From a virus, in the IMG/VR virus record IMGVR_UViG_3300028594_000085, positions 1 through 38,549 of that record: a stretch of DNA of 38,549 bases. One strand, 5' to 3'. Positions 8,918 through 29,728 of the stretch are shown piece after piece. Both the position numbers and the translations under genes were made by a program. The notes under the pieces were generated by a model. The model did no database searches. It saw only the letters and a list, made by a program, of their open reading frames with translations, and was not told the origin of the DNA. Position 1 is the first letter of the stretch, and each line of letters opens with the position of its first letter.

Positions 8918-11647
8918 TTACCTTTCTCCTCTCATATATGCTTCTAAGTCCATTCTCGCCTCCAGGTCTAAGTCCAGTGGATCCATAATCGCATTTAGAA
9001 TTTCCTCGCCTTCCACCTGGACGCTGACCGGGCGGGACGCAAGTTTTTCTATTGCCCTTGCCAGGTTCGCCAGCTGCCCGATATTCTGCTGCGGTGCTGG
9101 TGTGATTCGAGAGCCCGGAGCGATCCGAGGTACGTCCAGCATGGCATTAAGTTTCGCCTGAATGTCTGGTATCGCGCTATCAATCGAGTCGCTGATCGGG
9201 CCTTCAAAATTAAGCTTATGAATATCAGTTAACGGGCCTTCTTTAGCTGGAGAAAACGGGAGGAAGTCCCTAATTTTCCCGGCCACGTCGCTGATTGCTC
9301 CTGTGACTTTTCCGACGGCGTTCTTGATCCCGTCTGCAATACTGGTGACGATGTTCCGGCCAGCGTTGAAGAAGTCCTTGACTCGATCCGTTACTGCCCG
9401 CAATGCGCTTCGTATCCCATTTGACACTGCGTTTCTTACGCTGTTAAAGGCGTTCGACACGATGCCCCGCAGGGAATTAAAGATATTCGAGATGGTGTTT
9501 CGTATGCTGTTTACCACATTCGAGATCGTATTGCGGATGCCGTTCCAGATATTTGATATTGTACTCCGCACGCTGTTCATGACGTTTGATATCGTGTTCC
9601 GGATCGCATTAAAGACGTTAGTAATTGTATTTCTGATAGAATTGATGACGTTTGAAATAGTATTCCGGATATCATTAAAGACGTTTGAAATGGTATTCCG
9701 GATGTTATTAAAGATGTTTCTGGCCTGTTGATACAGGTTTGTGAAGAAATTGACGACTCCGTCAACAATACTTTTAACGAGATCAATCGCTCGCTTGAAT
9801 AAGTCCTTAAACCAGTCGACAATTGCATTGACCATATCCGGTATGATCGAGTTTCCGACCAGGGTCATATACAAGCCCTGGAAAAAATCAATGATCGACT
9901 GGACAAAGCCTTTTACAAAGTTAGCAAGCCCTTTAAAGATATTGATAAAGAAATCTACCGCTGACTGTCCGGCATCCTGCAAGAACTGGAACGCTCCCGC
10001 AAAGTCACCAGTAAAGAGCGCGACAACGGCATTGACTACATTGACGATAAAGTCCAGCAGGTTTACAAAAGCGTTTATCAGCGGGCCGATTGCCGCAATG
10101 ACTCCCGTAAAGACGCCAGTAATGACTCCGAAGACAGCCATAAAGGCTGCACCCACTAATTCAAGCAGCGGGATCAGGCTCTGCCAGAGGTTTTTCAGAC
10201 TGTCCATGATCGGACCGACCGAATCGAGAAGCGTCTGAAATGCCCCCCGTACCGTCGCCAGAAGGGGCTCGAAATGTCCAAAGACGTCGATTGCCTTTTC
10301 CTTGACCGTCTCCCAGTTTTGATAGAGTAAGACCCCTATGGCAATGAGTGACCCGATAATGGCGATCACGATTCCTACCGGTCCGGTCAGCGCACCAAAG
10401 ACGGCGCCTAACAGTTTCAGACTTCCCATAATCTGACCGACGGACGCGATAAGCGTTCCGAGGATGACTAATAGCGGTCCGATAGCAGCAGCTACCGCAC
10501 CGATAATAACTGTGATTGCGATAAACTCATCTGACAGGCTGTTAAACCAGTCTACTGCCTCTTGTACAATGCCGATCACCGTCTCGATGGCCGGCTGCAG
10601 GGACTCCCATATACGGAGGGCGACCTCTTCCAGGGCTGACCGCAGCTGCAGCAGTTTCCCGGCTGTCGTATCTCCCATAATCGCGGCCATCTCTGCAGCA
10701 GCGCCTTCGGCATCATTTAAGCTGCCGGTAAAATCTCCCAGGTTTTCAGACCCGGCAGAGATAAGAGCAGACCAGCCGGAAACCGCCTGCGCCCCGAACA
10801 GCGTTTCAAGCGTTGCTGTTTTCTGCTGATCTGTCATTCCTTCCAGACCTTTTTCAAGCTCTCCGATCACTTCCGGCATCGACTTCATTTGACCTTCAGC
10901 GTCGAAGATCTCCAGCCCAAGCTCGTCCATCAAGTCAGATACAGCAGAAGTAGGGGAGGCCAGGCGTAAAAGACCAGCTCGCAGGACAGTACCTGCTTGT
11001 CCACCGGCGATACCTGCATCTCCCAGGACCCCGACGGCTGCTGCGGTTTCTTCTACGGATATTCCGAGGGCAGCTGCTACAGGTGCGACGTATTTCATTG
11101 CCTCACCCATAGACTCGACCGTGGTATTAGAGTTAGCTGTCGCAGCTGCCAGGACGTCTGCTACTCGTCCAGCTTCGGCGGCTTCCATGCCAAACCCGGA
11201 TAGGATGTTTGACGCAATGTCAGCAGCGACGCCTAAGTCAGCGCCGGACGCTGCAGCCAGGTCAAGCAGCCCTGGCATGGCTTCCATGACCTCGTTTGCA
11301 CTAAAGCCCGCACGCGCGAGAAACTCCATCCCTTCCGCGGCTTGGAGCGCCGAGAATTTAGTGGTAGCCCCAAGCTCCCGGGCCTGTGCTTCCATAGCAT
11401 CCATCTCTTCGGCTGTTGCCCCTGATACGGCAGCAACCCTCGCCATACCACTCTCGAAGTCCATCCCGAGCTTGACAGCGAAACCAGCTGCGGCCGTCAG
11501 GGGAACGGTAAGGCTTTTTGATAGGGTCTTACCGACGTCTTTGACACCGTCACCGGCTGACTTTAATTTATTCTGTAGATCGGACAGGCCTTTTTCCAGG
11601 CCCTTGTCATTTAACTCTGAATCTATGACGACTCTTCCATCTGACAA
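8918..11647 (-). CDS. Tail tape measure protein (TP901-family core)
   Basis: 909 aa. Core motif MARVAAVSGAT..ELGATTKFSA..AAEGMEFLARAGF, glycine-rich TM-like central region, and nine tandem 11-aa repeats (IRNTISNVxNx) near the C-terminus. TTG start with GGGGGTGA SD. Confidence 0.9.
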   Translation of the reverse strand: MSDGRVVIDSELNDKGLEKGLSDLQNKLKSAGDGVKDVGKTLSKSLTVPLTAAAGFAVKLGMDFESGMARVAAVSGATAEEMDAMEAQARELGATTKFSALQAAEGMEFLARAGFSANEVMEAMPGLLDLAAASGADLGVAADIASNILSGFGMEAAEAGRVADVLAAATANSNTTVESMGEAMKYVAPVAAALGISVEETAAAVGVLGDAGIAGGQAGTVLRAGLLRLASPTSAVSDLMDELGLEIFDAEGQMKSMPEVIGELEKGLEGMTDQQKTATLETLFGAQAVSGWSALISAGSENLGDFTGSLNDAEGAAAEMAAIMGDTTAGKLLQLRSALEEVALRIWESLQPAIETVIGIVQEAVDWFNSLSDEFIAITVIIGAVAAAIGPLLVILGTLIASVGQIMGSLKLLGAVFGALTGPVGIVIAIIGSLIAIGVLLYQNWETVKEKAIDVFGHFEPLLATVRGAFQTLLDSVGPIMDSLKNLWQSLIPLLELVGAAFMAVFGVITGVFTGVIAAIGPLINAFVNLLDFIVNVVNAVVALFTGDFAGAFQFLQDAGQSAVDFFINIFKGLANFVKGFVQSIIDFFQGLYMTLVGNSIIPDMVNAIVDWFKDLFKRAIDLVKSIVDGVVNFFTNLYQQARNIFNNIRNTISNVFNDIRNTISNVINSIRNTITNVFNAIRNTISNVMNSVRSTISNIWNGIRNTISNVVNSIRNTISNIFNSLRGIVSNAFNSVRNAVSNGIRSALRAVTDRVKDFFNAGRNIVTSIADGIKNAVGKVTGAISDVAGKIRDFLPFSPAKEGPLTDIHKLNFEGPISDSIDSAIPDIQAKLNAMLDVPRIAPGSRITPAPQQNIGQLANLARAIEKLASRPVSVQVEGEEILNAIMDPLDLDLEARMDLEAYMRGER
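9410..9725 (-). repeat. Nine tandem 33-nt (11-aa) coding repeats inside the tape measure gene
   Basis: Protein repeats NIRNTISNVFN / DIRNTISNVIN / SIRNTITNVFN and so on, read directly from the translation. Confidence 0.85.
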
Positions 11648-11802: not shown

Positions 11803-12413
11803 TGCTTGCCACCACCTTTTGCAAACGTGCTGGCTACAGCATCCAGAGTATTTTCAAGCGTTTCTTGTTTCTCTTCCGGATCCTCCAGGGAGTGCAGCTG
11901 TTTCATTTTAATCACGTGGTTGCGGTATTCTTCCGTCGCCTGTTTTCCAGACGGGACTTTCATTGTCCGGTAACCAACAGCCTTTTTAAAGGCAGTGGAG
12001 TCTGATAGGTTGGTTAATAGGGCCATAAACTGACTCCACTGCAGCTGCCCCTGGACCTTAAATAAATCTATCTGATACTCGGAAAGAAAAGACGCGTAGA
12101 TCATCCCCGCATCTTTCTTCCAGTCCATTATTTTCTTTTTTGGTTGATCCTCATCTGTTTGCTTCTCCGGATCTAAAAACTCTTTCTGAATAAAATAGAA
12201 AAGCTCCAGCTGGTACTCAAATTCAAGCTGCATTATTTCCTCATGGTCAATAATCAGCATTTTAAGGGCCGTAGAGATCTTTTCATAGGCGTTAAACATA
12301 TCGTCCTCGAAAAGCTCAAAGAGCCGCAGGACGTTATCGTATGCTAAATTTAGGCGTATCTCCTGGCCGTCGAGTTCAAAACTACTCTCGGGAGGACGGG
12401 AGAGCGTTAGCAT
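11799..12413 (-). CDS. Gp15-like tail assembly protein (second chaperone-position gene)
   Basis: 204 aa between the chaperone and tape measure genes. The sequence is of the type annotated as bacteriophage Gp15 in Listeria and Bacillus siphoviruses. Confidence 0.6.
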   Translation of the reverse strand: MLTLSRPPESSFELDGQEIRLNLAYDNVLRLFELFEDDMFNAYEKISTALKMLIIDHEEIMQLEFEYQLELFYFIQKEFLDPEKQTDEDQPKKKIMDWKKDAGMIYASFLSEYQIDLFKVQGQLQWSQFMALLTNLSDSTAFKKAVGYRTMKVPSGKQATEEYRNHVIKMKQLHSLEDPEEKQETLENTLDAVASTFAKGGGKQ

Positions 12414-12801
12414 TTACTTTCAGCCCTGTATATTTTTTGAGTTGGTCAGCCCGAATACTTTCTGCTTTTTCCTTAATCGGTTCCGCCAGGAAATAAACCA
12501 TATCGACCATATTCAGCAGGGAGTTTCCGGACTCTTTATAAAGCCTCTCAAATTCCCCATCCCCAAGCATTAAGTCTACAAAGTCTTTGACCAGTTTCCG
12601 CATCTCCAGGAACATCTCATTCTGTTCTTTTGCGGATAGATCTTTGACATCTTTCTTCTGTAAGTCCTGGGTTTTCAAAAAGAACTGTTCAAATTCTCGG
12701 TTGTATTCCATTACTTTTTCGTCTGAAAAGTCTAGTGTGTAGGTCTTGCCTGCAATTTCTATGTCTTCCGTTTTCGTCTGAAACTCAAATTTTCTAGTCA
12801 T
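12382..12801 (-). CDS. Tail assembly chaperone
   Basis: Sits between the major tail protein and tape measure genes. The ATG at 12801 has GGAGG 7 nt upstream; the track start at 12816 lies within that SD. Confidence 0.65.
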   Translation of the reverse strand: MTRKFEFQTKTEDIEIAGKTYTLDFSDEKVMEYNREFEQFFLKTQDLQKKDVKDLSAKEQNEMFLEMRKLVKDFVDLMLGDGEFERLYKESGNSLLNMVDMVYFLAEPIKEKAESIRADQLKKYTGLKVNANALPSSRE

Positions 12802-12823
12802 GGTAATCCTCCTCATAATTTAA

Positions 12824-12848
12824 AGAGGGAAGGGGTTCCCGACCCTCT
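12824..12848 (-). terminator. Weak attenuator-like hairpin after the major tail protein gene
   Basis: 6-bp stem agaggg/ccctct with a GC-rich interior. Followed on the minus strand by UUUAAAUU. Confidence 0.3.
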
Positions 12849-12856
12849 GCATGGTT

Positions 12857-13363
12857 TTATTCTGCTTTCTGCTCTTCGAGCTGACGCGTTGCGGTCTGTG
12901 TGCTTGCTGTGCTTGTCCCGCTGATTCCATTGCCGGCTGTAAATTCCGGCTTACCGTTAAAGTGGATCTCGAAGCCGATCTCGCCTTTCGCTCCAGCTTC
13001 TCCGCCTGGTCCTGTAATAGCTGCAATAGTGACAGGCCCCTCATAAGAAGATCCGTCAGGAAGCGTCCAGCGGAAAGTTGTGCGGCGGGCAGGTCCCGGC
13101 TCTAATAAGAGTCCGAAAATATAATCTTGTGCTGCATCCCCGTATTTCCGGTGACCAGAAAACGTAAGCACCAGTTGCGCGCCGATAACGTCTGTCTCTG
13201 CAAAGCCTTCCCCGTCAAAATACCGGTCCTGGGCTGTCTCGTCGTTTGGATCTGGTTCCATGCTCGTAATACCAGCGCCCAGGCGCACAAAATTTTCATC
13301 GCCGGTTCCCGGAGATGTATTCAGTTCTAATAAGTGTTTCGACTGCAAAAGAAATTCTGCCAT
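12857..13363 (-). CDS. Major tail (tube) protein
   Basis: 168 aa, positioned upstream of the chaperones. Beta-rich sequence of the type seen in phi13 / TP901-1-like major tail proteins. Confidence 0.8.
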   Translation of the reverse strand: MAEFLLQSKHLLELNTSPGTGDENFVRLGAGITSMEPDPNDETAQDRYFDGEGFAETDVIGAQLVLTFSGHRKYGDAAQDYIFGLLLEPGPARRTTFRWTLPDGSSYEGPVTIAAITGPGGEAGAKGEIGFEIHFNGKPEFTAGNGISGTSTASTQTATRQLEEQKAE

Positions 13364-13366
13364 CGT

Positions 13367-13762
13367 TTACCTTCCTCCTTCTAATTCAGCCGTGAACATG
13401 GCTGTGTAGATAAATTCGTTGTGATCGGTTTCCTCCAGATAGTTTGGGTAGGTGTATACTTCACAACGGATAAAAACAAAACTGCCGTTCTCGCTTTTTA
13501 TCGCAGAGTTCGGCAGTCCGTCTAGTAACTCCGTAATCTCGTTTATAAGCCGTATCGCTTCAAACTGATTCGGGTCTTTTATTAAAATCTGAAAAGAGTA
13601 TTCATACGTCTTGCTGTTATCGAGCGACCGGGAGATCGGACTGGAGGGAGTGGGGCGGAGTGCTGCTGCCTGTTCTCCCTTGCCAAGTTTTCCGACGCTG
13701 AAAAACGACGGCATTTCTATCCGGTCCTCGATAAAATCTAGTAGGCGATCCAGGAAGTCCAA
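13367..13762 (-). CDS. Tail terminator / tail completion protein (minor capsid 2-like)
   Basis: 131 aa immediately upstream of the major tail protein gene. TTG start with AGAGAGG SD. Confidence 0.6.
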   Translation of the reverse strand: MDFLDRLLDFIEDRIEMPSFFSVGKLGKGEQAAALRPTPSSPISRSLDNSKTYEYSFQILIKDPNQFEAIRLINEITELLDGLPNSAIKSENGSFVFIRCEVYTYPNYLEETDHNEFIYTAMFTAELEGGR

Positions 13763-13790
13763 ACCATCCGCCTCTCTTTCTAAAAGTCAT

Positions 13791-14049
13791 TTACAACAAG
13801 TACAACAGAAACAACGTAATTCCTATATAGTCTAAATACACGTGTTATGCGTACACGTATACATGTACATACGCATATACTATATATTTATACTTACATA
13901 CTAATTATTGTTGTATCTGTAGTATATAGAGTAGTAACCCTTGGTGTGATAGGCTTTAAAGGTACTACAGACTGGCTTTTATTCTGTTGGATTGCGTTGT
14001 ATCTGTTGTATTCCTCTGAATTCAGATACTACAGACTTACAACAGAGTC
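13791..14049. repeat. Dispersed 259-nt noncoding repeat, copy A
   Basis: Hand-aligned to 25089-25347 at a constant offset of 11,298 nt: 13791-13823 (28/33), 13877-13942 (64/66), 13963-14049 (75/87). Contains TACTACAGA and ACAACAGA motifs and the palindrome TCTGAATTCAGA (14015-14026). Confidence 0.9.
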
Positions 14050-14066
14050 TGTTGTACTTTTTCGGG

Positions 14067-14432
14067 TTATTTCCCGTTAAAATATTGCTCGTAATTCTGC
14101 CGGACTTTGTCTAGCCAGAAACCTTTCCGGACAGCTTTCGCCTCCTCAAACCATAAGCCCCTGGCATAAGGGTTCTTGTCTGTCGAGAAATTATATTGCG
14201 GGTTGTAGTAAAGCCTCCGGGCGTATGGCGTGTCCCAGATGATCAGACCTTGACCAATCAGGCTGGATCGGATCCCGCTGCCTTCCAGCGTCCCGATCTG
14301 TTTCGGGATGTAGTTGTTGGAGTCTTTCAGGACGTCCTGGTCCAGCATCATCTGGGCAGCCCGTTTGGACTGGGTCCGCTTGGCGTCTAGCTTTGCCCGG
14401 TCAATATCAATCTGCATCTGAAACGTAAGCAT
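14067..14432 (-). CDS. Head-tail joining / neck protein (minor capsid protein-like)
   Basis: 121 aa within the connector block. The motif IWDTPYARRLYYNP..NPYARGLWFE resembles phage minor capsid / HK97 gp10-like neck proteins. Confidence 0.6.
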   Translation of the reverse strand: MLTFQMQIDIDRAKLDAKRTQSKRAAQMMLDQDVLKDSNNYIPKQIGTLEGSGIRSSLIGQGLIIWDTPYARRLYYNPQYNFSTDKNPYARGLWFEEAKAVRKGFWLDKVRQNYEQYFNGK

Positions 14433-14762
14433 TTAGATCAGCTCCAGTTCATAATGGTGCAGATCAAACGTATAGATCGGATTGATCTTGTTCACGGTCA
14501 TTGACTTGCCGTTAAAGGTGATCCTTGAGTTCTTGACAAACTCCACATCGGACGGCCTGGAGTGGACACAGTCAAAAAACAGGAGGGAGCTAAAAGCGAC
14601 CTGATCCGCCGTAGCTGACCGGCTGATATTGGAGACCGGCTGCACAAGTACATGCTCCAGCGTTACCGGTTCTTTAAACTCGTTCCCGTACCGGTCCCGT
14701 TCCGTGTACTCTTCGTACTCCACAGTGTGGATGAGAAGCTCTTTCGGCATCGGTTCAATCAT
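14433..14762 (-). CDS. Head closure / head-tail adaptor protein
   Basis: 109 aa, abutting both neighbours in the connector block. Confidence 0.55.
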   Translation of the reverse strand: MIEPMPKELLIHTVEYEEYTERDRYGNEFKEPVTLEHVLVQPVSNISRSATADQVAFSSLLFFDCVHSRPSDVEFVKNSRITFNGKSMTVNKINPIYTFDLHHYELELI

Positions 14763-15150
14763 TTACACTCACGCCCCGATAAAGCAGCCCTGTAGGCTCT
14801 AAATAGGCTAAAACAGCAGCGCTTGTCATTTGTTCTTCTCGGGATAGCTGATCAGCTCCAGCGCGGTCTGCGTACTGGAAGTTCCCAGCCCGCACAGAGC
14901 CGAAATTCCCGCCGCCCTGGGCGCGCCTCTCGCCATTCGTGACTAAATACTCCAGTTGGGCAGCAGTCGCTTTCTTGACCTGCTTCTGGACAAAATCAGA
15001 GAAGGCATCCAGCCCATGAATGGACACCAGGTGATCGGTCAGCATATCCACAATCTCGCTGGACCTTTTTGCTAAACGACTAAAGGAGTCCGCTGGAACC
15101 TGGACTCCTTCATACTCATTTTTATAATATTCTTCTGTGATATAAGGCAT
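14755..15150 (-). CDS. Head-tail connector protein (gp6-like)
   Basis: 131 aa. The N-terminus YITEEYYKNEY... is typical of gp6-like DNA-packaging / connector proteins. First gene after the capsid genes. Confidence 0.65.
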   Translation of the reverse strand: MPYITEEYYKNEYEGVQVPADSFSRLAKRSSEIVDMLTDHLVSIHGLDAFSDFVQKQVKKATAAQLEYLVTNGERRAQGGGNFGSVRAGNFQYADRAGADQLSREEQMTSAAVLAYLEPTGLLYRGVSVND

Positions 15151-15164
15151 CAGCCTTCACCGCC

Positions 15165-15329
15165 TTATTTTTTGCTGTCGTCCTGCTTTCCGCCTTCTCC
15201 CTTTTTGGCTGCAGGTTTCTGCTTCGGTTTCAGTTGAGCCTCCGTGACTTCTTTATAGCCGATGGCTTTAAGCTCACGGATCCGGCCCCCATCATTCTCA
15301 CGTAGAATAACATTCTCTTTCTTTAACAT
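15165..15329 (-). CDS. Small basic protein (54 aa), absent from the ORF track
   Basis: Hand translation: MLKKENVILRENDGGRIRELKAIGYKEVTEAQLKPKQKPAAKKGEGGKQDDSKK. GAGGTG SD upstream. An in-frame TTG at 15335 is an alternative start. Confidence 0.55.
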   Translation of the reverse strand: MLKKENVILRENDGGRIRELKAIGYKEVTEAQLKPKQKPAAKKGEGGKQDDSKK

Positions 15330-15359
15330 AGCCAATGATATCACCTCATTTTATTGTTT

Positions 15360-16253
15360 TTATTCTGCTGCAGTTTTATGAGATACCGCCAGTCCTTCAG
15401 ACTGGTGTTTCATTACGAATAAATCATGATACAGGCGGTTCTGGTATAGGTAACCGTCTCCTTGCGTATGCTGTCCAGGCTGGAAGAGATAAACAGAATT
15501 TAGTTTAGCCTTAGCAACGATTGCACCTCGGAAAACTACAATCCAGTTAAGCTCCAGGGAACCAGCATCTGGTGTAAACCCATCCGTAAAGTCAAAGGAA
15601 GTACGGAAGCGATCCACGTCGAATACTTCAATCAGCGTGACTCCGTCAAGAGTAGTGACGCGCGTTTCGATAGAAGTGCCGCCGTCTTGAATGGAGATCG
15701 TTCCTTTTCCTTCCCGGTAATCTTCTACCGCAGCCATAACGTCAGTAGAAACATAGCAGGTAAGGTTCGCAGTGCCGAATTTACGCAGTTTACGTAAGTC
15801 TGCCCGTAAGCGACTGACTACATCTGCTGGAGTGCCATCCGTTACATCTTCACTGGTAGCCTGATCTAACTCCATTGCTTTGGTTCCGATTTTGGAAAAG
15901 CGGTAGGCGTCAATTTCCGGCCCTGCATGCTCTTCGATAAATACTCGCGTTACGTTTGCAGCACTTGCAGCATAGTTTGACTCGTCCACGTCCATCTGGT
16001 CCACAAAGAATTCAACGTCACGGTCAAACTGCAGAGTGTATGGCTCGTGAGTAACTTCTACCGTACCGCGGTTGTATCCGCCGTTTCGGCTGTGAGTTTT
16101 ATAGCCACTTACTGCTAAGTTTGGAACGTGAAACGTTTTCGCTCCTAACCAGGTGACGTTAGGTGTTTCTAAAATGTTGGTAAGCGTGTTTTGAGTGAAC
16201 GCCTGATCTAATTCCGCTTGATAGCGCTCTGCATAGTTAATTGCGTTTGCCAT
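15360..16253 (-). CDS. Major capsid protein
   Basis: 297 aa directly after the scaffold gene. No stop-free competing frame. Confidence 0.85.
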   Translation of the reverse strand: MANAINYAERYQAELDQAFTQNTLTNILETPNVTWLGAKTFHVPNLAVSGYKTHSRNGGYNRGTVEVTHEPYTLQFDRDVEFFVDQMDVDESNYAASAANVTRVFIEEHAGPEIDAYRFSKIGTKAMELDQATSEDVTDGTPADVVSRLRADLRKLRKFGTANLTCYVSTDVMAAVEDYREGKGTISIQDGGTSIETRVTTLDGVTLIEVFDVDRFRTSFDFTDGFTPDAGSLELNWIVVFRGAIVAKAKLNSVYLFQPGQHTQGDGYLYQNRLYHDLFVMKHQSEGLAVSHKTAAE

Positions 16254-16266
16254 TAATAATCATCTC

Positions 16267-16911
16267 CTATTTTCCTAGTAATACGTCAGCGAATGAATCG
16301 CCTCCGCTTTTTCTTGAGTGGTTTCCGGTAGAGATAGAAGGCTTGCCAGGCTCTTCTGATCCTTCACCCAGGAAGTGAGGGTATTTCTCTGTGACTTTTT
16401 TGATCGCGTCGTCTATCGTGACGTCTTCCGTTACTTGCAGCTGGGCAAGGGCCACGACATCCTCTACAAATTCAGCGTTAACTCCAGCCTTCATTGCACT
16501 TACTTGAGCAGTAAGGGAGCTAATCGTCTCCTTGTCCTGGAGGCTTTCCTTCTCCAAGTTTTGAAGCTTTTCAGCCTGTTTCTCGGCGTCGGTTTTCTGG
16601 GCTTCCTGCCATTCCTGGAACTTTTTAAAGCCATCCTTGGCGTTTTCAAAGTCCTCAATGCCCAGCTCTTTAAAGAGCTTTTCCTGGGCTTTACGAGCTT
16701 CTTTAGCAGCAATGTTGTTAACATCTTCCTGCGTGAATGTTTTGTCCTCTGGCTTATCGTCTTTAGGCTCACCAGTATTGCCTTTTGGAGCAGGTGGTTC
16801 TTGACCTCCCGGATTGTCTGATGGCGCCGGGTCACCAGTGCCTCCAGCTCCGCCGCCAGTATCAGCAGCAAAGTACTGCAGGTTCATGCGTAAAAGTTGC
16901 TGTAATTCCAT
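16267..16911 (-). CDS. Scaffolding protein (GP20-like)
   Basis: N-terminal NLQYFA motif, Gly/Pro-rich segment, long charged coiled coil. Lies between the MuF and capsid genes. Confidence 0.8.
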   Translation of the reverse strand: MELQQLLRMNLQYFAADTGGGAGGTGDPAPSDNPGGQEPPAPKGNTGEPKDDKPEDKTFTQEDVNNIAAKEARKAQEKLFKELGIEDFENAKDGFKKFQEWQEAQKTDAEKQAEKLQNLEKESLQDKETISSLTAQVSAMKAGVNAEFVEDVVALAQLQVTEDVTIDDAIKKVTEKYPHFLGEGSEEPGKPSISTGNHSRKSGGDSFADVLLGK

Positions 16912-16976
16912 TTATAATTCCTCCCTGATGGGTAAATTTTCTTCTGTTTTCTGTCCGCCTAACAGATAAAAGGCAT

Positions 16977-17009
16977 AAGAAAAGCTCCTAACGCTTGACT
17001 GCTAGGAGC
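16977..17009 (-). terminator. Terminator-like hairpin after the 61-aa ORF
   Basis: Perfect 7-bp stem gctccta(16984-16990)/taggagc(17003-17009) with a 12-nt loop. UUUUCUU follows on the minus strand. Confidence 0.5.
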
Positions 17010-17011
17010 GA

Positions 17012-17197
17012 TTAATCTTCTTCTAATGCATATCCTGCTATATTTCCTCTATAAAAAACTGCATCTCTTCTCACTTGAGTAAAAACTCCAAAATAACTAA
17101 AATTCAATTCCTCTGAACCATCTTGAAAATTTTCCACTTGTTCAAACTTACAGGTGTTTCCGTTTGTTAACCAGATAATTAAAGTCTTATTTTTCAT
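17012..17197 (-). CDS. Hypothetical 61-aa protein (low-GC insert in the head module)
   Basis: AAAGGTGGTGA SD. A sampled 60-nt line is about 28% GC, against about 50% in the flanking genes. Bracketed by hairpins. Confidence 0.6.
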   Translation of the reverse strand: MKNKTLIIWLTNGNTCKFEQVENFQDGSEELNFSYFGVFTQVRRDAVFYRGNIAGYALEED

Positions 17198-17269
17198 GGT
17201 TTCACCACCTTTACAGGATACGAAACGGCTGCCCGCCCGGCAGCTGGGAGATGGGGATCACACTCCTCT

Positions 17270-17398
17270 CTAAGCCATATAGTTTGGCTCTTTGGGTTTT
17301 TTAAGCTCGCGGATCTCTTCCTCCTGACGGAGGACAATTTCCGTCAATCCCTGTACATGCTCTTTCAGCTGTTCAAATTCCTTGCGGGATACAAACAT
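17270..17398 (-). CDS. Small coiled-coil protein (42 aa), absent from the ORF track
   Basis: Hand translation: MFVSRKEFEQLKEHVQGLTEIVLRQEEEIRELKKPKEPNYMA. GGAGG lies 7 nt upstream, within the end of the MuF gene. Confidence 0.55.
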   Translation of the reverse strand: MFVSRKEFEQLKEHVQGLTEIVLRQEEEIRELKKPKEPNYMA

Positions 17399-17401
17399 GC
17401 T

Positions 17402-18547
17402 TTAACCTCCTATACGGCCTCTGACGTGCGGATTACCAACAGGGAGGACCTCACGCTGACGCTGTCTGGTCCGTCCGGTATCGTCGATAAACTTCCGCAT
17501 GTTAGCCTGTTTCTTTAGCACTTTCTGTTTGGCTTGTTCCTGCCCTTCTTTATCTTCCAGGGCTTGCATCATGTTATATTCACGTTTTGCCTTCCGGATC
17601 TCGCGCTCCAGGTGACGCTGCCGCTGACTCTGTTCATAGATCAGGGCATTTTCTGTAGCGTCTTCCGTCGGTTCATAAGTGCGTTGCGATATACCGGGGA
17701 TATACGGATATTTAAAATGACCGCAATTAATCCCAAACAATCCCGCAGGCTCACCGTAAGAAGTATCTCGGATTGAAGGATAGTTTCTGTCTCTGCCACT
17801 CTTTGAAAATACGCGGCCCTGATAGGGAGCGCATAGAGGACGAGCTCCGGAATGGCTAGATACTTCAAAAAGATCGACGCCGTATTCGTCCATTCTCGCA
17901 TCTTGCATTTCATGAGAGACATTATTGGTTACAGTGCGCGTGATCATATTGACATATGCCTCTGTAGACCATTGCCTGCCAGCCCGGTCAATCATGGCGG
18001 GGACGCCCATATCTGCCCAGTTTCTGGCAGCTTCCCGGAGAGCTTGTTCTGGAGTAGAAACGCCAGACATAACTTTTCCAGTAACATTGCTGACCACGTT
18101 TAAATACTGCTGCCGGGACTGATCCAGCATCGTTGTATTGACCATGTTCATCCATTCGCGCGCATGGTTCTCGTAAGCGTCCAGGATATTAAGCAGGGCC
18201 TCACTGTTTCGGATATCGGGAGGACTGGAGAGCAAGCCGCGCCTTACGGCCTCTGCCATATCCGGTTCGATTTCTTCCACGGCACTGTATCCGACCTCTT
18301 CCAGCATTTTTGCTACCTCATCAATGGCAAGATTAGACTTGCGGGCCATAAAGATAATGTTTTCCTGCGTCAGTCCGCCCAGCTGATTCAGCTTATCCGC
18401 CTGCCAGGAAGTAATGTCATCGTCCATCAGACTTTTGCCGCGCTTTAAGCGTTTGGCAGCATTGAGCAGGATCTGCTCTTCAATCTGCAGGAAGATCTCG
18501 ACAGTGGGGAGGGAGAGCTGCTGATGTTTAAGTCTCCTCATCGCCAT
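17402..18547 (-). CDS. Minor head protein, Mu F / SPP1 gp7 family
   Basis: 381 aa after the portal gene. The motif SHSGARPLCAPYQGRVF...GINCGH is typical of the family. Confidence 0.8.
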   Translation of the reverse strand: MAMRRLKHQQLSLPTVEIFLQIEEQILLNAAKRLKRGKSLMDDDITSWQADKLNQLGGLTQENIIFMARKSNLAIDEVAKMLEEVGYSAVEEIEPDMAEAVRRGLLSSPPDIRNSEALLNILDAYENHAREWMNMVNTTMLDQSRQQYLNVVSNVTGKVMSGVSTPEQALREAARNWADMGVPAMIDRAGRQWSTEAYVNMITRTVTNNVSHEMQDARMDEYGVDLFEVSSHSGARPLCAPYQGRVFSKSGRDRNYPSIRDTSYGEPAGLFGINCGHFKYPYIPGISQRTYEPTEDATENALIYEQSQRQRHLEREIRKAKREYNMMQALEDKEGQEQAKQKVLKKQANMRKFIDDTGRTRQRQREVLPVGNPHVRGRIGG

Positions 18548-18695
18548 CGACCTCTCTGAATCTTACGGTTCGGCTTTGTGCGATCTCTAGCATCATTCTT
18601 AAAAGCCATTCATCCGGGATGTCATTATCCCATTGATGCCGAATGAGAAACGTTTCCAGTTCATGCTTTAATGCAGCATATTGACTACCGTCCAT
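18528..18695 (-). CDS. Small hypothetical protein (55 aa)
   Basis: The ATG at 18695 has GGAGGAGG 8 nt upstream. Overlaps the portal end and the MuF start. Confidence 0.5.
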   Translation of the reverse strand: MDGSQYAALKHELETFLIRHQWDNDIPDEWLLRMMLEIAQSRTVRFREVDGDEET

Positions 18696-20187
18696 CCCCG
18701 CTGCCTCCTCCGCCATTTAATCCGAAGAAGTCAATAGCTTCTGGAGTAGTCCGGCGTTGCTCTTCTGCAATTCGAATCAGTTCATCCTCGGCTTCATCTT
18801 CAGTCAATCCCAGCAGGGCAATTATGGCTCGTTTCTTAGAAGCAAGGTCATTGGAGACAAGCTGCGTCCAATATTGCAGATCTCCCATTTTGTCCTCTGC
18901 TACTGAATCGTCAAAGGTGACAGTGACCTCGTAATCTTCCGGACGGTTGAACAGCTCATATTCTTCTGCCAGGTCCAGGATGATCTCCACCAGGTCCTTG
19001 ATGCCTTCCTCGATCATCGTTTCATGGGATTGTTTGGTGCGGAAGGTCTTACTGTTTTCTGACACAACTTCTGTAGCTGTTTTCATCGACTGGCCGTCAA
19101 AGCTGAATGATCCAGCAGAAAAGCCCGTCTGCATTGCAAACAGATTAAGCAGCGCATTTATAGCTGAAACATGTTCATCAACTCGGAGCTCTACTGAATT
19201 ATCATGAATCTTCTGCCCTTCAGGATCATCAAATTTAAATGCCTGGTAGACCTCGTCATCTGCGTCAAAATACCGCACCTGTTTTCCAGTCTCCGGATCG
19301 TTGACATATTTAATAGCAGAAGAGGGGACCAGGATCCGTTTCTTGCCTAGTCGGAATTCGCGTTCAAACGAGTCGAAAGCAATGTCGATAGCTTTAATGG
19401 TATCTAATGCATTCCCATAGATGGAAACGCCCATCGGGCTATCCATATCTACGTTGTTTGCGCTGTTCGGCTTGATGTAAACAAAGATAGGACGCTTCCA
19501 GTTATTAAATTCAATGACCGGCTCCAGGTCAGGGTAGAGGACCTTAATATCTACAGGCGTTCCAATCTCTCCGGTAGATGTCTTTGCTTCATACAGTTCA
19601 TGATCCACATAATAGGTGCCTTGCTTCCAGTAATGCCATTCTAAATGGGTATAGGTTTTATCGCCCTTCACCGTCTCATTGATAAAGACGCCCTCCGTTA
19701 CTTTCTTGTTGGTCCAGCCGGTAGGGATAAAAGAGTCTGCTTTAACATAAGCAATTTTCATCTGCTGATCTTCCACGTGCGCTTTTACGACAAAGCCGCC
19801 AAGCGCAAACATATACTCCAGGTAGCGCTGAAACTCTCTGCGGAAACCGTTATTGTCCAGCACATCCTCAATATCTTTCCTTAGCGTTTCGTCGGAGATG
19901 TTCACCTGGCAGCGCTCGTTAAATACGAGTGTAGCCATTTCTTCTGAAACAACTTTAGGCATACCCAGCGAGCTCCTGCGCCGTTTCTTTGTGCCGGAAA
20001 TGGTTTTATCTTGCGTATCATGAAAAGGCCCGTAATATCCCTGATAGAGCGCTTTCCAGGTCTCCATCTGCTGGAACATTGGTTCTGAAATGTTTAAATC
20101 TCGTTTATCGCTAAGGTCTTTTAGACCTTGAATCAATCCCATATTATAAAGCCACCTCCTCACTGTAGAGACGATACTCTTAAACAT
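18685..20187 (-). CDS. Portal protein (SPP1 gp6-like)
   Basis: 500 aa, located downstream of terL and upstream of MuF. Confidence 0.85.
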   Translation of the reverse strand: MFKSIVSTVRRWLYNMGLIQGLKDLSDKRDLNISEPMFQQMETWKALYQGYYGPFHDTQDKTISGTKKRRRSSLGMPKVVSEEMATLVFNERCQVNISDETLRKDIEDVLDNNGFRREFQRYLEYMFALGGFVVKAHVEDQQMKIAYVKADSFIPTGWTNKKVTEGVFINETVKGDKTYTHLEWHYWKQGTYYVDHELYEAKTSTGEIGTPVDIKVLYPDLEPVIEFNNWKRPIFVYIKPNSANNVDMDSPMGVSIYGNALDTIKAIDIAFDSFEREFRLGKKRILVPSSAIKYVNDPETGKQVRYFDADDEVYQAFKFDDPEGQKIHDNSVELRVDEHVSAINALLNLFAMQTGFSAGSFSFDGQSMKTATEVVSENSKTFRTKQSHETMIEEGIKDLVEIILDLAEEYELFNRPEDYEVTVTFDDSVAEDKMGDLQYWTQLVSNDLASKKRAIIALLGLTEDEAEDELIRIAEEQRRTTPEAIDFFGLNGGGGSGDGR

Positions 20188-20400
20188 TTACTCACCGCCT
20201 GTGTTTTCGTATCTGTCAACAATGCTGACTATAAAATCATTTACTTCTAGATTAAAATTTTCATGGAGTACATGAGCAGGAAAGGTTGCTGTTTTAACTT
20301 CCTTTGTTTGATGTATCCGGTACTTTATATAAACAGAAGGCCCGTCGTCAGGGTCTACATAGAACCGGGCTTCATACACTCCATATTTAGCTTTGGGCAT
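20188..20400 (-). CDS. Hypothetical 70-aa protein
   Basis: Abuts the portal start and follows terL by 12 nt. Confidence 0.6.
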   Translation of the reverse strand: MPKAKYGVYEARFYVDPDDGPSVYIKYRIHQTKEVKTATFPAHVLHENFNLEVNDFIVSIVDRYENTGGE

Positions 20401-20412
20401 CTCCAGCGCCTC

Positions 20413-21714
20413 CTAAATTACATAGTTTTTATAAAAATGGTTCGTGCTATAGCGGAATTCGTCCATGGCATGGTTATAGTCATCTATCGGCTTGCCGCTG
20501 TTTTCGTCGCGGACGTACATGCCTGCCTCTTTAATAAAGTGATAGTGATCATAGCGGTCATTCTCGATGAGGTAGAACTGCTTGTTAGTGATCAGGTTCT
20601 GCGCCCGTTCGATTCCTACTTCAATACCGCCGCCTTGCTTCCTGGCGTCTCGTGCATTATTATCTGCGCCCGTTGTATCAATCCCGATAAGCTCCAGCTC
20701 TTCCCGCAAGCTTTTAGCAGCCGGATCCACTAGCACCTCGGAGTATCGCATTTCAAACTTATCGACGCACCAGGTGATAAAGTCCTTGATCTCCTTGGCG
20801 TAAACACTCATAGCCTTTACCTGGCCTGTATCAGCGCCAGAGTGGTAATAGTGGGCTGCACGGTTTAAGCGGAACTTTTCTTTATAGCGCGTGACAATAT
20901 TGCAAGAAACAGAAGTCGCATCTGACTGTCCAGCATCCGCAGAAAAATACATTTCATACGGCTTGCCCCGTAAAACAGGCAGCTGGTGTTTCTGCGGATT
21001 GAACATAGAATAAATAACGCCTTCTGGCATGACGCGTTTCCCGTACCAGTCACGATCCAGCAGGTAAGGGTTTTTACTTAGTGTCTCGAAAATGGACTTT
21101 TTCCGTTCTTCCGTAATGATCGGGTTGTCGTTTATCGTCCAATGCAGCCAGTCCGTATCCTGGACCTCAAAGACATCACTAATAACCGGATCATGGGGAG
21201 CAGGAGGGTTCAGGTCTGCTAGATGGAAGCGATTCAGAGCAGCAAACGTCCGCCGGAAACATTCCTGTATAAACTTCAAGTTTAATAAATTGATCTCACA
21301 AAAAACGACGCTACCCAGGGACATCCCAGTAATAGCGCCTACGCTGTTTGATTTTCCGCCGCCCTTGTAGTAGACCTTTTTAATGCCGGTTGCTGTATGC
21401 ACTTCTAAATGTGATCCGTGTTCATCGTGGCGGATCCGTGCCAGGTCTCCAAAGATATGCTGCAATCCCGTACCGTCACCGTCGATAAAAAGGCGGTAAG
21501 CCTGTTCCTGGTTATAGGCAGCTATCAGATGGTTGGTATCTTTGGACTGATTGAGATAGTTTGCATATCTGAAATGCCCGGCTGTTGTTTTTCCACTTCT
21601 GGGCGTTCCCTCTAAAACCTCAAGGGTATGCTTAAATGGCCGGTAAGCCGTCCACAATTGCTTTTTAGAGAGCTGAAAGGTATCAGTCATCAGCATCACC
21701 TTTAAACTCGTCAA
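20413..21714 (-). CDS. terL: Terminase large subunit (PBSX / Terminase_3 type)
   Basis: Walker A GTPRSGKT and a C-terminal nuclease region. 433 aa. Overlaps the terS end. Confidence 0.9.
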   Translation of the reverse strand: MTSLKVMLMTDTFQLSKKQLWTAYRPFKHTLEVLEGTPRSGKTTAGHFRYANYLNQSKDTNHLIAAYNQEQAYRLFIDGDGTGLQHIFGDLARIRHDEHGSHLEVHTATGIKKVYYKGGGKSNSVGAITGMSLGSVVFCEINLLNLKFIQECFRRTFAALNRFHLADLNPPAPHDPVISDVFEVQDTDWLHWTINDNPIITEERKKSIFETLSKNPYLLDRDWYGKRVMPEGVIYSMFNPQKHQLPVLRGKPYEMYFSADAGQSDATSVSCNIVTRYKEKFRLNRAAHYYHSGADTGQVKAMSVYAKEIKDFITWCVDKFEMRYSEVLVDPAAKSLREELELIGIDTTGADNNARDARKQGGGIEVGIERAQNLITNKQFYLIENDRYDHYHFIKEAGMYVRDENSGKPIDDYNHAMDEFRYSTNHFYKNYVI

Positions 21715-22600: not shown

Positions 22601-22628
22601 GTCATCAACTCCACCTCCAGCAATGGGA

Positions 22629-22658
22629 TAATAAAAAAGGCACCCGATTCGGATGCCT
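22629..22658 (-). terminator. Rho-independent terminator about 30 nt upstream of terS
   Basis: 9-bp stem 22636-22644 / 22650-22658 with one G-U that exists only on the minus-strand RNA. 5-nt loop, then UUUUUUAUU. Confidence 0.7.
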
Positions 22659-22669
22659 TTCTGCTATTT

Positions 22670-22786
22670 CTTACTCTTTTGCGGACCGCTGCGGCCTTTT
22701 AGCCGGGAGTCCTTCTTGCTTGTATTGGAAGAATTGCCTCGGCTTACTGGTCCTGGTTTCGTACGTCCTCGATCCTGTTTCGCCAT
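22670..22786 (-). CDS. Small basic ORF (38 aa), absent from the ORF track
   Basis: Hand translation: MAKQDRGRTKPGPVSPRQFFQYKQEGLPAKRPQRSAKE. GGAGGTG SD 8 nt upstream. Confidence 0.45.
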
Positions 22787-22869
22787 GGAAGCACACCTCC
22801 ATACTTATAATTTTACCTATTACCATCGTACCACCTATAGGGTGACATTACACTGACTACTTTTTGACA

Positions 22870-25058: not shown

Positions 25059-25088
25059 TTTTAGCCTACCTCCTTAAAAACTGCCCAC

Positions 25089-25347: not shown

Positions 25348-25366
25348 CGATGTAAGTGAATCGTGA

Positions 25367-29599: not shown

Positions 29600-29612
29600 T
29601 TCATAAACCCTC

Positions 29613-29714: not shown

Positions 29715-29728
29715 CTTTTTTCACCCTC

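Follow-up and report, generated by a model that had tools for sequence, protein, structure and literature searches.

The window, by which we mean the whole 38,549-nt stretch of viral DNA analysed here, contains a 304-nt gap (13763-14066) between its head-completion and tail-terminator genes. The sequence that fills this gap recurs 11.3 kb away, beside the gene of a primase-helicase. What this repeated element is, and why a second copy of it should lie among the late genes of a small phage, are the questions addressed below.

A duplicated non-coding element

A preliminary description of this DNA, made by eye, had aligned positions 13791-14049 to 25089-25347 in the same orientation, with no net indel and an offset of 11,298 nt. 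Our recomputation agrees, with a constant offset and an identity of 209/259 across that interval. The homology reaches slightly further than those limits, and blastn delineated direct repeats at 13788-14057 and 25086-25355 (80.8% identity over 271 nt, E=8.3e-69, no indel), hereafter copy A and copy B. Block counts of 28/33 for the first block and 64/66 for the core (13876-13941) were reproduced exactly, while the third block stands with a recount of 76/87 instead of 75/87. Outside the repeats, the 100-nt flanks display 27-30% identity, which is the random level. The two copies differ at 54 positions, which excludes a duplication introduced during assembly. The independent Logan assembly SRR7705359 includes a contig of 11,227 nt that matches the window at 100% identity and runs from 25140 (in copy B) to 13914 (in copy A); it ends inside both copies, indicating that the assembler broke within each repeat. 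Taken by itself, a public contig that runs from copy to copy could represent a sub-genomic circle or, equally well, a plain assembly break at the repeat.

The gap had been described as devoid of open reading frames preceded by a Shine-Dalgarno sequence (SD), and its non-coding status was upheld. The sole sizeable ORF within it (13847-14080, plus strand) has no SD and was rejected as a coding sequence: mismatches between the copies are distributed 12/16/12 over the codon positions, the differing codons comprise 4 synonymous versus 23 non-synonymous changes, and copy B carries an in-frame stop. Copy A has a GC content of 34.5%, compared with 48% for the genome. Meanwhile, copy B begins 11 nt past the stop codon of the primase-helicase gene (25367-25369), the homology ending at 25355, and it ends about 25 nt ahead of the ribosome-binding site (RBS) of the VRR-NUC gene. 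The BLASTN search for a known family proposed in the preliminary description gave no match: neither blastn of the 304-nt gap in distant mode nor megablast of positions 12000-27800 retrieved anything from GenBank phages. Exact scans of IMG/VR and the JGI metagenomes with conserved-core and iteron-array patterns were likewise negative. The coordinates of all features are collected in Table 1.

Table 1. Elements of the two repeat copies and associated genes of the window
Feature	Positions	Strand	Remarks
Tail-terminator gene	13367-13762	-	Downstream of copy A; TTG start, RBS GAAAGAGAGG
Copy A, candidate origin paralogue between head-completion and tail-terminator genes	13788-14057	-	Fills the 304-nt gap
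Copy A, iteron cluster nearest the downstream gene	13792-13819	+	TACAACAAG, TACAACAGA, degenerate AACAACGTA; spacing 9 nt
Copy A, AT-rich centre	13866-13941		Contains iteron pair 13907-13924; 64/66 identical to copy B at 13876-13941
Copy A, distal iteron field	13963-14056		13963 (+), 13983/13993/14002 (-), 14027/14038 (+), 14048 (-)
Head-completion gene (Minor_capsid_2)	14067-14432	-	Upstream of copy A
ArpU-like regulator candidate	22870-23397		phrog_36, weak match
SNF2-family helicase	23398-24777	-	Conserved replication module
VRR-NUC nuclease	24774-25058	-	Directly downstream of copy B; candidate structure-specific nuclease
Copy B, putative origin at family-conserved position	25086-25355	-	Same-junction element in 62/74 relatives
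Copy B, iteron cluster nearest VRR-NUC	25090-25116	+	Tandem TACTACAGA, TACAACAGA, AACAACAGA; spacing 9 nt
Copy B, AT-rich centre	25164-25239		Contains iteron pair 25205-25222
Copy B, distal iteron field	25261-25354		25261 (+), 25281/25291/25300 (-), 25325/25336 (+), 25346 (-, degenerate)
Fused primase / SF3 (VapE-type) initiator-helicase	25367-27769	-	800 aa, putative iteron binder; phrog_256, PF05272
Helicase residues ~760-800	25370-25492	-	C-terminal helix and GW-xxxx-L-RFGxxYGxQR hairpin; predicted iteron-reading head
Further replication/recombination genes	30199-34350	-
PolA	30199-32130	-
Gp2.5-like SSB/annealase	32552-33127	-
Exonuclease	33148-34350	-

Iterons and AT-rich centres

Both copies are ordered arrays of the 9-mer TACWACAGA, present in both orientations around an AT-rich centre. 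Exact matches to this motif occur 15 times in 38.5 kb, all of them within the two elements, against an expectation of 0.48 and a maximum of 3 in 100 shuffles. The positions and orientations of the iterons match between the copies, and the spacing within clusters is 9-11 nt. Copy A retains 7 exact iterons (8 within one mismatch) and copy B retains 8 (10 within one mismatch); allowing up to two mismatches, there are about 12 positions per copy. Each AT-rich centre is flanked by an iteron pair on one side and by an oppositely oriented cluster of two to three on the other. In copy A, the cluster beside the downstream gene points back to the AT-rich centre when read in the gene sense (minus strand), and 2/3 of its sites are degenerate. 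On the distal side of copy A, sites 13983/13993/14002 are spaced by 10 and 9 nt, and positions 14038-14056 form a perfect 9+9 palindrome, TACAACAGA-G-TCTGTTGTA. This ordered array had gone unremarked in the preliminary description.

The AT-rich centres of copies B and A rank first and second as the least stable duplexes of the genome in windows of 40, 60, and 100 nt. The least stable 40-mer lies in copy B (25164-25203, -35.9 kcal/mol), followed by 13876-13915 in copy A (-37.8 kcal/mol), against a genome mean of -54.1 kcal/mol (sd 4.2). Mismatches between the copies are rarer in the iterons and AT core (19/156) than elsewhere in the element (35/114; Fisher p=2e-4). GC skew and AT skew displayed no shift at either copy; the coding strand dominates these signals.

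The adjacent primase-helicase and its relatives

The gene content next to copy B provided insights into the protein that may act on these arrays. Residues 368-776 of the primase-helicase match the SaPI1 protein Rep1 (E=5.8e-84) in PDB entry 7PDS, which is a Rep1-DNA complex (PMC9371898), and the protein scores 276 bits against the VapE-like family PF05272. A profile of its C-terminal domain aligns to Rep1 residues 289-465 of 477 (E=1.8e-24), and the segment of residues ~760-800 corresponds by homology to the final part of the Rep1 C-terminal domain (CTD). A single-sequence AlphaFold model of the last 143 residues reached a pLDDT of only 38.5 and was discarded, leaving a winged-helix fold unsupported by that model. 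The replication module consists of PolA, the SF3 primase-helicase, VRR-NUC, and SNF2; a scan of its genes revealed neither a DnaB-type helicase nor a loader. The phage is temperate.

This type of helicase is found in at least 345 GenBank phage records, and the relatives checked directly include phages of Clostridium, Clostridioides, Listeria, and Enterococcus. Using the SNF2-family helicase as an anchor for retrieving relatives, we surveyed 74 loci in which both a full primase and VRR-NUC were present. The gap at the junction between these two genes is typically 240-360 nt, and in 62 of the 74 loci it contains a 7-mer repeated at least 4 times (at least 6 times in 49). The same junction is occupied by such an element in the named phages phiCT453A, phiFL4A, and LWP01. 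The iteron differs phage by phage among the survey loci, mostly following the form TG-NNN-ACA. At one locus (L087), it reads TGACAACA.

Close pairs of relatives link these iterons to the helicase. The helicases of L018 and L021 are 98.9% identical, and all nine of their differences fall at positions equivalent to residues 780-800 of the window protein; meanwhile, on either side of the AT-rich centre, itself about 95% identical, all iterons have switched from GTTACC to GTCTAC. Over 16 kb, this pair displays one other cluster of differences, a patch inside PolA. Between L045 and L061, 11/11 helicase differences lie in residues 760-800. In these two pairs and in L094/L095, clustered amino acid changes occur only in residues 760-800, and all iterons switch along with them. 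We infer from these relatives, as opposed to the window phage itself, that iteron specificity lies in the helicase C-terminus. Part of the co-variation could reflect linkage, as the C-terminus adjoins the origin. Nevertheless, iterons past the conserved AT centre also switch and the pattern recurs in independent pairs, which argues against linkage alone. Among distant helicases sharing the same iteron, no simple residue-to-base recognition code emerged. A 174-aa HTH protein encoded upstream of the primase was considered as an iteron reader and rejected, being absent or non-varying in the swap pairs. The conserved junction element, together with the joint change of the last 20-40 helicase residues and the iterons, indicates that copy B is the cognate origin of this initiator.

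Copy A is an insertion, and second copies are rare

The preliminary description had proposed examining the gap between the connector genes in related phages. In three Bacillus phages, 11-13 nt separate the head-completion and tail-terminator homologues, and the junction measures -4 to +17 nt in 12 metagenomic relatives. All 15 relatives fall within -4 to +17 nt, so the gap in the window is indeed unusual and copy A is an insertion relative to them. A search of IMG/VR with the tail-terminator protein as anchor retrieved no relatives.

One diverged metagenomic contig (L136, RWZD01000193.1), which does not include the replication module, carries a 302-nt element, built on the same iteron, at the junction that copy A occupies. 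The genes on either side of it have reached saturation, with third-codon identities of 0.44 and 0.40, and within the element iteron columns are 79.6% identical, compared with 47.8% for the other columns. A sequence orthology to copy A specifically was not supported: of the sites that distinguish A from B, the L136 element has the A base at 29, the B base at 25, and neither at 15. The relationship that we claim, as judged from these alignments, is thus limited to positional orthology with concerted evolution.

A different locus, L003, which belongs to an unrelated lineage, has two origin copies 12.5 kb apart, with the second at a different site; its primase is 49% identical to that of the window, and its iteron is GTCAACAAA. 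The duplicated iterons are intact, and the second copy lies upstream of early genes, outside the late region. L003 duplicated its own origin independently. A partial second copy was found in L083. Overall, second copies are rare: about 75 loci yielded 2-3 within +-10 kb, and the three complete named genomes yielded none. The short junctions of the 15 relatives, the element retained in L136, and the distribution of mismatches between A and B mark copy A as an old insertion under purifying selection.

Possible roles of the second copy

Based on these findings, we are confident that both elements are Rep-type origin arrays. The preliminary description could not assign the element by eye to any described type, which proved too pessimistic, since it fits the Rep-iteron origins of SaPIs and PICIs. 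Among the explanations offered there, a second replication origin comparable to oriL/oriR of SPP1 is the one that our data favour: iterons and AT-rich anatomy are present in both copies, and the Rep1-homologous primase-helicase adjoining copy B has a C-terminus that co-varies with the iterons in relatives.

We propose the following model. The putative origin consists of about 10-12 TAC[A/T]ACAGA iterons, about one helical turn apart, in opposed groups flanking the AT-rich centre. The most likely reader of these iterons is the C-terminal domain of the 800-aa primase / SF3 initiator-helicase; like its SaPI Rep homologues, this protein would bind the iterons, melt the AT-rich centre, and load itself. 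Copy B would be the ancestral origin, at the usual place of this phage group, and copy A a paralogue that entered the junction of the head-completion and tail-terminator genes long ago. Selection on the iterons, along with exchange of sequence between A and B, would have preserved its match to copy B. Binding, melting, and firing in the window phage are what we infer from sequence, and with different degrees of confidence. Copy A is probably bound by the initiator in a functional manner. That it serves as a second site of initiator-helicase binding and unwinding, and so as another origin lying 11.3 kb from copy B, is the reading that we favour with some reserve, and whether it actually fires as an origin we judge to be close to an even call, if anything slightly worse. 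Two points speak against a second origin: for a 38-kb genome, two origins bring little gain in speed, and direct repeats put the intervening 11.3-kb segment at risk of loss.

Copy A, with its degenerate cluster sites, may instead bind the initiator without firing. It would then act mainly as a programmed barrier or switch, stalling forks from copy B and driving the transition from theta replication to concatemer synthesis (sigma or recombination-dependent), with the stalled fork processed by the phage nuclease, exonuclease, and annealase. We consider this unlikely, though it deserves serious attention. The model comes from phage SPP1, which has two similar origins 12-13 kb apart, oriR interrupting the late gene order, and for which oriR-bound gp38 has been suggested to halt the fork and set off the replication switch (PMC6316719, PMC3485210). 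The spacing of the copies is similar (11.3 kb here and 12.5 kb in L003), copy A interrupts the late gene order as oriR does, one of its iteron clusters is partly degenerate, and VRR-NUC, the exonuclease, and the Gp2.5-like annealase/SSB make up the functional set of SPP1 G44P, G34.1P, G35P, and G36P. Against this, copy A retains the whole AT-rich centre (64/66; the second least stable duplex), which would be superfluous for a pure protein barrier, and the second copy of L003 lies upstream of early genes and not in the late region. In addition, SaPI-type Reps presumably load as a pair of hexamers and replicate bidirectionally (PMC9371898), whereas SPP1 oriL is unidirectional, and the barrier model is itself unproven in SPP1.

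More speculatively, the repeats bracket an 11.3-kb block encoding VRR-NUC, SNF2, the late-regulator candidate, terminase, portal, scaffold, capsid, and adaptor genes, and they might form a device that, late in infection, increases the dosage of the packaging and head module. Onion-skin amplification could result if both ends initiate repeatedly, or recombination between A and B could release an 11.3-kb origin-bearing circle replicated in trans by the primase-helicase. The encoded exonuclease and annealase and the 64/66-nt common core are compatible with such a device, which we nonetheless hold to be improbable.

A use of the repeat as a promoter or activator array, serving once the middle genes (VRR-NUC, SNF2) and once the tail genes of the minus-strand unit, appears similarly doubtful. 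Phage origins and promoters often overlap, each copy immediately precedes a gene, with about 25 nt separating it from the RBS, and the phage encodes a weakly matched ArpU-like regulator candidate. Nevertheless, a scan for sigma-70-like promoters found none in copy B and just one, weak (9 of 12), in copy A, partly in a non-conserved block, so the late promoter array suggested in the preliminary description has no sigma-70-like site common to both copies; the counts of such sites are at shuffle level. The iterons, moreover, co-vary with the helicase C-terminus and not with a regulator, and the layout matches SaPI origins point by point.

The rarity of second copies (2-3/~75 loci within +-10 kb; 0/3 complete named genomes) and the degenerate state of some copy A iterons are what would be expected if copy A were a functionless, drifting remnant of an accidental origin duplication, tolerated in the late operon. 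We find this quite improbable: the L136 contig retains the layout and iteron at the same junction despite its saturated flanking genes, mismatches between A and B avoid the iterons and AT core (p=2e-4), useless direct repeats should be purged owing to the deletion risk, and L003 carries an independent duplication with intact iterons.

It is very improbable that the repeat acts as RNA, be it as an antitermination or processing site akin to nut/put, as the preliminary description had suggested, or as a small RNA gene. The minus-strand RNA folds better than shuffles (z = -3.9 for A and -6.5 for B), but the predicted stems are pairings of opposed iterons, automatic in any such DNA array, and we therefore set these scores aside as evidence for RNA. 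The tandem direct iterons have no pairing partner, and a terminator-like hairpin plus T-run on the plus strand of copy A is destroyed in copy B. The Rfam search that had been proposed returned no family at gathering threshold; at permissive settings, it returned animal miRNA hairpins and the sxy element, far below threshold and differing between the copies.

Least credible of all is a small non-autonomous mobile element of the MITE kind, inserted twice: the ends do resemble terminal inverted repeats (TACAACAGA ... TCTGTTGTA) and copy A represents an insertion when compared with related phages, yet the apparent inverted ends are the iteron, which also recurs internally, neither copy has a target-site duplication, searches of GenBank phages, IMG/VR, and the JGI metagenomes revealed no further copies, the serine integrase is the only recombinase found and no transposase is encoded, and the place of copy B is held in 62/74 relatives by a homologous element with its own iteron, unlike a mobile element. 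The mobile insertion considered in the preliminary description is at odds with a repeat unit that is phage-specific and matched to a phage protein.

Implications

To our knowledge, phages with two origins are rare. The role of a second origin in a small phage genome is an old question that rests almost entirely on SPP1, for which the action of oriR as a fork barrier switching to concatemer synthesis was never proven. The window phage would provide an independent two-origin case, built on a structurally well-characterised type of self-loading helicase, that of the SaPIs. Natural controls are at hand in close relatives with one origin, in the diverged L136 with its copy at the same junction, and in L003 with its differently sited duplicate, which makes the second-origin question directly testable. 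These findings also suggest an annotation rule for a widespread group of Firmicutes phages, namely that the unannotated 240-360 nt gap after a VapE-type primase-helicase is the origin. Meanwhile, an iteron matched to the final ~40 helicase residues offers a ready system for studying how initiator-origin specificity diversifies.

Comparison with known origins

Short repeats matched to a specific initiator beside an AT-rich region are familiar from lambdoid phages (O protein and ori-lambda) and from iteron plasmids. The lambda origin is single and lies inside the O gene, and the initiators are unrelated to that of the window phage. Extra iteron arrays away from the origin can be control or sink sites, as in P1 (oriR plus incA). 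The incA array has no unwinding element, whereas copy A retains the whole origin, including its AT-rich centre.

SPP1 is closer in architecture. In both phages, there are two similar origins per genome, each with repeats and an AT-rich unwinding element (11.3 kb apart here), one phage initiator is thought to bind both, the second copy breaks an otherwise conserved late gene order, and a phage nuclease, exonuclease, annealase, and SSB are on hand for stalled forks. The machinery differs: SPP1 uses the origin binder gp38, the loader gp39, and the DnaB-type helicase gp40, compared with one self-loading SF3 primase-helicase here. Furthermore, oriL lies inside gene 38 whereas copy B is intergenic, and SPP1 is virulent whereas the window phage is temperate. 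The comparison with SPP1 made in the preliminary description thus stands for the architecture and fails for the initiator, which is unrelated to gp38, gp39, or gp40. The resemblance is probably convergent, making SPP1 an analogue rather than a member of the same class.

The closest match is to the origins of SaPIs and PICIs. The initiators are homologous, with the C-terminal domain aligned end to end with Rep1, and the fused primase-helicase of about 800 aa resembles the 790-aa PriRep5 of SaPI5 (PDB 7OM0). SaPI origins lie directly downstream of rep and contain 6-12 iterons around an AT-rich centre, with at least two per side in opposite orientation (PMC9371898). Copy B likewise lies directly downstream of the initiator gene, whereas copy A is 11.3 kb away, and in the window, too, a central AT-rich region divides the iterons, with two or more on either side in opposed orientation. 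SaPI iterons are read by a winged helix of the CTD, and PriRep5 without its CTD loses ori binding (PMC9371898); in the phage group, iteron specificity appears to track the same domain, as suggested by the co-variation among relatives. Differences include iterons of 8-9 bp, compared with 5-6 bp in SaPIs, and a complete temperate phage as opposed to a satellite. Most importantly, the SaPI description (PMC9371898) covers a single ori only, whereas the window phage carries two copies, the second in the late operon far from rep.

Genome context of the repeated element

The window has identical ends, so that its unit length is 38,494 nt; it is a complete temperate phage genome, circularly permuted, from a circular or terminally overlapping assembly. 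Nearly all of its genes lie on the minus strand. Two direct repeats are offset by 11,298 nt throughout, without an indel, with 80.8% identity over 271 nt (blastn, E=8.3e-69), and the similarity of their 100-nt flanks is at random level. A recount of the matches that the preliminary description had made by hand gave the same values except for block 3 (76/87 instead of 75/87). With differences at 54 positions, the copies cannot be an artefact of assembly. The sole other public contig with an identical head-completion protein (L193; Logan SRR7705359, 11,227 nt), from an independent assembly, is identical to the window over exactly the inter-copy segment, starting inside copy B and ending inside copy A. 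Its ends are most simply explained by an assembly break at the repeat; an excised sub-genomic circle would also give the same contig.

Features of the window and their setting
Feature	Position (nt)	Strand	Setting or description
Identical ends	1-55; 38495-38549		
Copy A	13788-14057	-	Fills the 304-nt gap between the head-completion (Minor_capsid_2) and tail-terminator genes
AT-rich centre of copy A	13876-13915		
Copy B	25086-25355	-	11 nt after the stop codon of the 800-aa protein; ends just before the VRR-NUC nuclease gene
AT-rich centre of copy B	25164-25203		
Invariant 11-mer sites	13838-13852; 25136-25150		Copies A and B
Segment identical to L193	13914-25140		
800-aa primase-helicase	25367-27769	-	
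SNF2 helicase gene			Directly after VRR-NUC
PolA, Gp2.5-like SSB/annealase, exonuclease			Upstream of copy B
Early-operon gap, about 600 nt, AT-rich	29600-30198		Between gene 29174-29599 and PolA; holds ORF 29736-30017 (+)
Imperfect 32-nt inverted repeat, 72% complementary	36258-36348		Divergent region between the CI-like repressor gene (36360-37001, +) and early minus-strand genes
Five tandem repeats of about 21 nt	249-382		Inside ORF 159-758 (+); encode an acidic stretch rich in Glu/Pro/Ala
CI/LexA-type repressor and serine integrase		+	

The gap holding copy A had been described as noncoding, and the coding statistics of its one long ORF bear this out. Differences between the copies are spread over the three codon positions without bias (12/16/12), the differing codons are 4 synonymous against 23 non-synonymous, and the ORF lacks a ribosome-binding site and meets a stop codon in copy B. 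A small protein encoded by copy A is ruled out by these statistics.

Elsewhere in the genome, the early-operon gap includes the duplex stretches that rank third and fourth for instability, contains no iterons, and may represent a moron or a promoter/terminator region. The inverted repeat beside the repressor gene probably marks an operator/promoter switch region.

Origin-like anatomy of both copies

The 9-mer TAC(A/T)ACAGA has 15 exact sites in the window, seven in copy A and eight in copy B, with none elsewhere (shuffled controls: mean 0.48, maximum 3). When degenerate sites are included, each copy has about 12 iteron positions, whose offsets and orientations match between the copies and whose spacing within clusters is 9-11 nt, about one helical turn. 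In the gene sense, both copies consist of an inverted iteron pair, three direct iterons, one inverted iteron followed by a spacer, two direct iterons, an AT-rich centre, a short variable stretch in which purines and pyrimidines alternate, and finally two to three inverted iterons that end about 25 nt short of the following gene's ribosome-binding site.

By nearest-neighbour energy, the centre of copy B (-35.9 kcal/mol) is the least stable 40-mer of the genome and that of copy A (-37.8 kcal/mol) the next (mean -54.1, sd 4.2 kcal/mol), and these ranks also hold at 60 and 100 nt. The GC content of the elements is 34.5%, against 48% for the genome. Differences between the copies affect 19 of 156 positions in the iterons and AT core versus 35 of 114 in the spacers (Fisher p=2e-4).

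One 11-mer outside the iterons (minus strand CGCATAACACG, plus strand CGTGTTATGCG) does not vary among the two copies and the element of L136, a relative with an 88% identical capsid (about 5320-5335 of that contig), although the neighbouring spacer is scrambled. The hairpin that holds it has one compensatory stem change, ACGTG...CACGT in copy A versus GCGT...ACGC in copy B. This 11-mer may be where a host factor acts or priming takes place.

The primase-helicase as candidate iteron reader

Residues 368-776 of the 800-aa protein match PDB 7PDS (E=5.8e-84), the complex of DNA with Rep1 of Staphylococcus aureus pathogenicity island (SaPI) 1 (PMC9371898). A profile of the C-terminal domain, built from 23 relatives, aligns with residues 289-465 of the 477 of Rep1 (E=1.8e-24), including the final helix and the 'RFGxxYGxQR' hairpin. 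The protein is thus predicted to be a SaPI-type initiator-helicase. SaPI origins lie immediately downstream of rep and have a central AT-rich region and 6-12 short iterons, at least two per side and in opposite directions; their reader is a winged helix within the C-terminal domain of the helicase, which loads itself, and PriRep5, a 790-aa fusion, loses origin binding without this domain (PMC9371898). Copy B agrees with the published description point by point, and by the sequence-level features examined the element is of the SaPI/PICI Rep-iteron origin kind.

Comparison among relatives points to the residues involved. Two Clostridioides difficile-type phage contigs, L018 and L021, are 98.8% identical over 16 kb. 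Their helicases are 98.9% identical and differ at nine residues, all within window-equivalent positions 780-800; the iteron is TGGTAACA in L018 and TGTAGACA in L021. At the DNA level their elements are about 95% identical in skeleton and AT centre, yet every iteron is switched on both sides of the centre, a pattern that a single recombination tract next to the gene end would not give. The same nine changes separate the helicases of L094 and L095, and all eleven differences between those of L045 and L061 fall in residues 760-800. The sole other difference cluster across the 16 kb is a short mosaic patch inside PolA (L018 6000-6750), where several amino acids flanking a conserved motif are changed; the remaining DNA-binding genes show no differences. 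The variable helicase residues fall in the part homologous to the Rep1 C-terminal domain. Because of this co-variation and homology, we infer that the last 40 or so residues of the primase-helicase read the iterons and that the element is its cognate origin. No simple recognition code from residues to iteron bases was apparent in the helicase comparison.

SaPI Reps are proposed to bind the iterons, melt the AT centre and load themselves (PMC9371898). By the same scheme, primase-helicase hexamers would use their C-terminal domains to bind the opposed iteron clusters, then melt the AT centre and self-load.

The element across the phage group

Relatives were gathered through three anchors (primase, SNF2 helicase and GenBank phages), and 74 loci with a full-length primase-helicase and VRR-NUC were surveyed. 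The gap between these genes is typically 240-360 nt, and holds a 7-mer repeated at least four times in 62 loci and at least six times in 49. Layout and AT-rich centre are common to the surveyed elements; the repeat unit is phage-specific and mostly follows TG-NNN-ACA (TGTAAACA, TGGTAACA, TGTCAACA, TGTAGACA, TGGCAACA, TGACAACA and others). The element is present in Clostridium phage phiCT453A, Enterococcus phage phiFL4A and Listeria phage LWP01, whose records carry no annotation of it. The closest replication module, in the Amphibacillus sp. MSJ-3 prophage (72-81% protein identity), has the same layout with iteron TGACAACA and structural genes unrelated to those of the window. In the distant relative L004, a tandem array of about 30 copies (18-nt period, about 87% identity; 3945-4497) stands upstream of the replication genes.

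Age, upkeep and recurrence of the second copy

Among annotated structural relatives, the three nearest (Bacillus phages IEBH, PfNC7401 and vB_BpsS-140) have the two genes that flank copy A 11-13 nt apart; in 12 metagenomic relatives the distance is -4 to +17 nt. The gap is thus absent from 15 relatives and present in one, L136, where 302 nt at the same junction have copy A's layout and the same iteron, TACAACAGA, in the same positions. The flanking proteins are 64% and 56% identical between window and L136, and third-codon positions of their genes are saturated (0.44 and 0.40 identity). Iteron columns are nevertheless 79.6% identical, against 47.8% for non-iteron columns, which shows that the second copy's iterons have long been under purifying selection and contradicts neutral junk. 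On sequence comparison, copy A is an old, maintained insertion.

Non-iteron columns are 65% alike between copies A and B and 48% between copy A and L136, and L136 favours neither copy at the positions that distinguish A from B (29/25/15). The copies have therefore exchanged sequence since the insertion, a case of concerted evolution.

A second copy is rare, with 2-3 among about 75 loci within ±10 kb and none in three complete named genomes. L003 (primase 49% identical) carries two copies with iteron GTCAACAAA that share 87% identity and are separated by 12.5 kb; the second lies upstream of the early genes, in a divergent intergenic region. L083 has a partial second copy.

L083 has no VapE match and an origin-like element upstream of VRR-NUC; its partial copy is of the AT core and lies 2.7 kb downstream of that element (sites 9600-9720 and 12281-12390). 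L064, without a VapE-type primase match, has an iteron-rich region (CGGCAACA / CAGCAACA) at 15690-16030, about 4.5 kb downstream of SNF2. The two clear cases may understate how common relocation or duplication of the origin is in this module.

Function of copy A and alternative explanations

Both copies have full origin anatomy and an initiator homologue adjoins copy B, which favours the second origin among the candidates of the preliminary description. Since copy A keeps the iterons and the unwinding centre, we read it as a putative second binding and unwinding site, and hence a second origin. The main rival follows the model for Bacillus subtilis phage SPP1, in which the initiator at the second origin stalls forks and brings about a switch to concatemer synthesis. 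The phage encodes a corresponding set of nuclease, exonuclease and annealase, and one iteron cluster of copy A includes two degenerate sites, but a pure barrier would not need a conserved unwinding centre, and we consider this explanation less likely. GC skew was uninformative between the two.

The other proposals received no support. For a nut/put-type RNA site or an sRNA, no Rfam family was found, and the significant fold z-scores come from the inverted iterons. For a late promoter or activator array, a scan of sigma-70-like type found no promoter common to both copies. A mobile insertion such as a MITE is countered by the absence of a target-site duplication, by the lack of other copies in the GenBank phages, IMG/VR and JGI metagenomes searched and by the position of copy B, conserved across the family.

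Comparison with known systems

In the literature searched we found no report of a duplicated origin of the SaPI/PICI Rep-iteron type, an absence that is no proof. The origin itself is ordinary; its unusual side is a conserved, recurring second copy within the late operon, which provides a second system in which to test what second origins are for. The two-copy architecture is like that of SPP1 oriL/oriR, but the initiator is unrelated to that of SPP1, so the SPP1 arrangement is an analogue and not a group to which this phage belongs, and the likeness is probably convergent.
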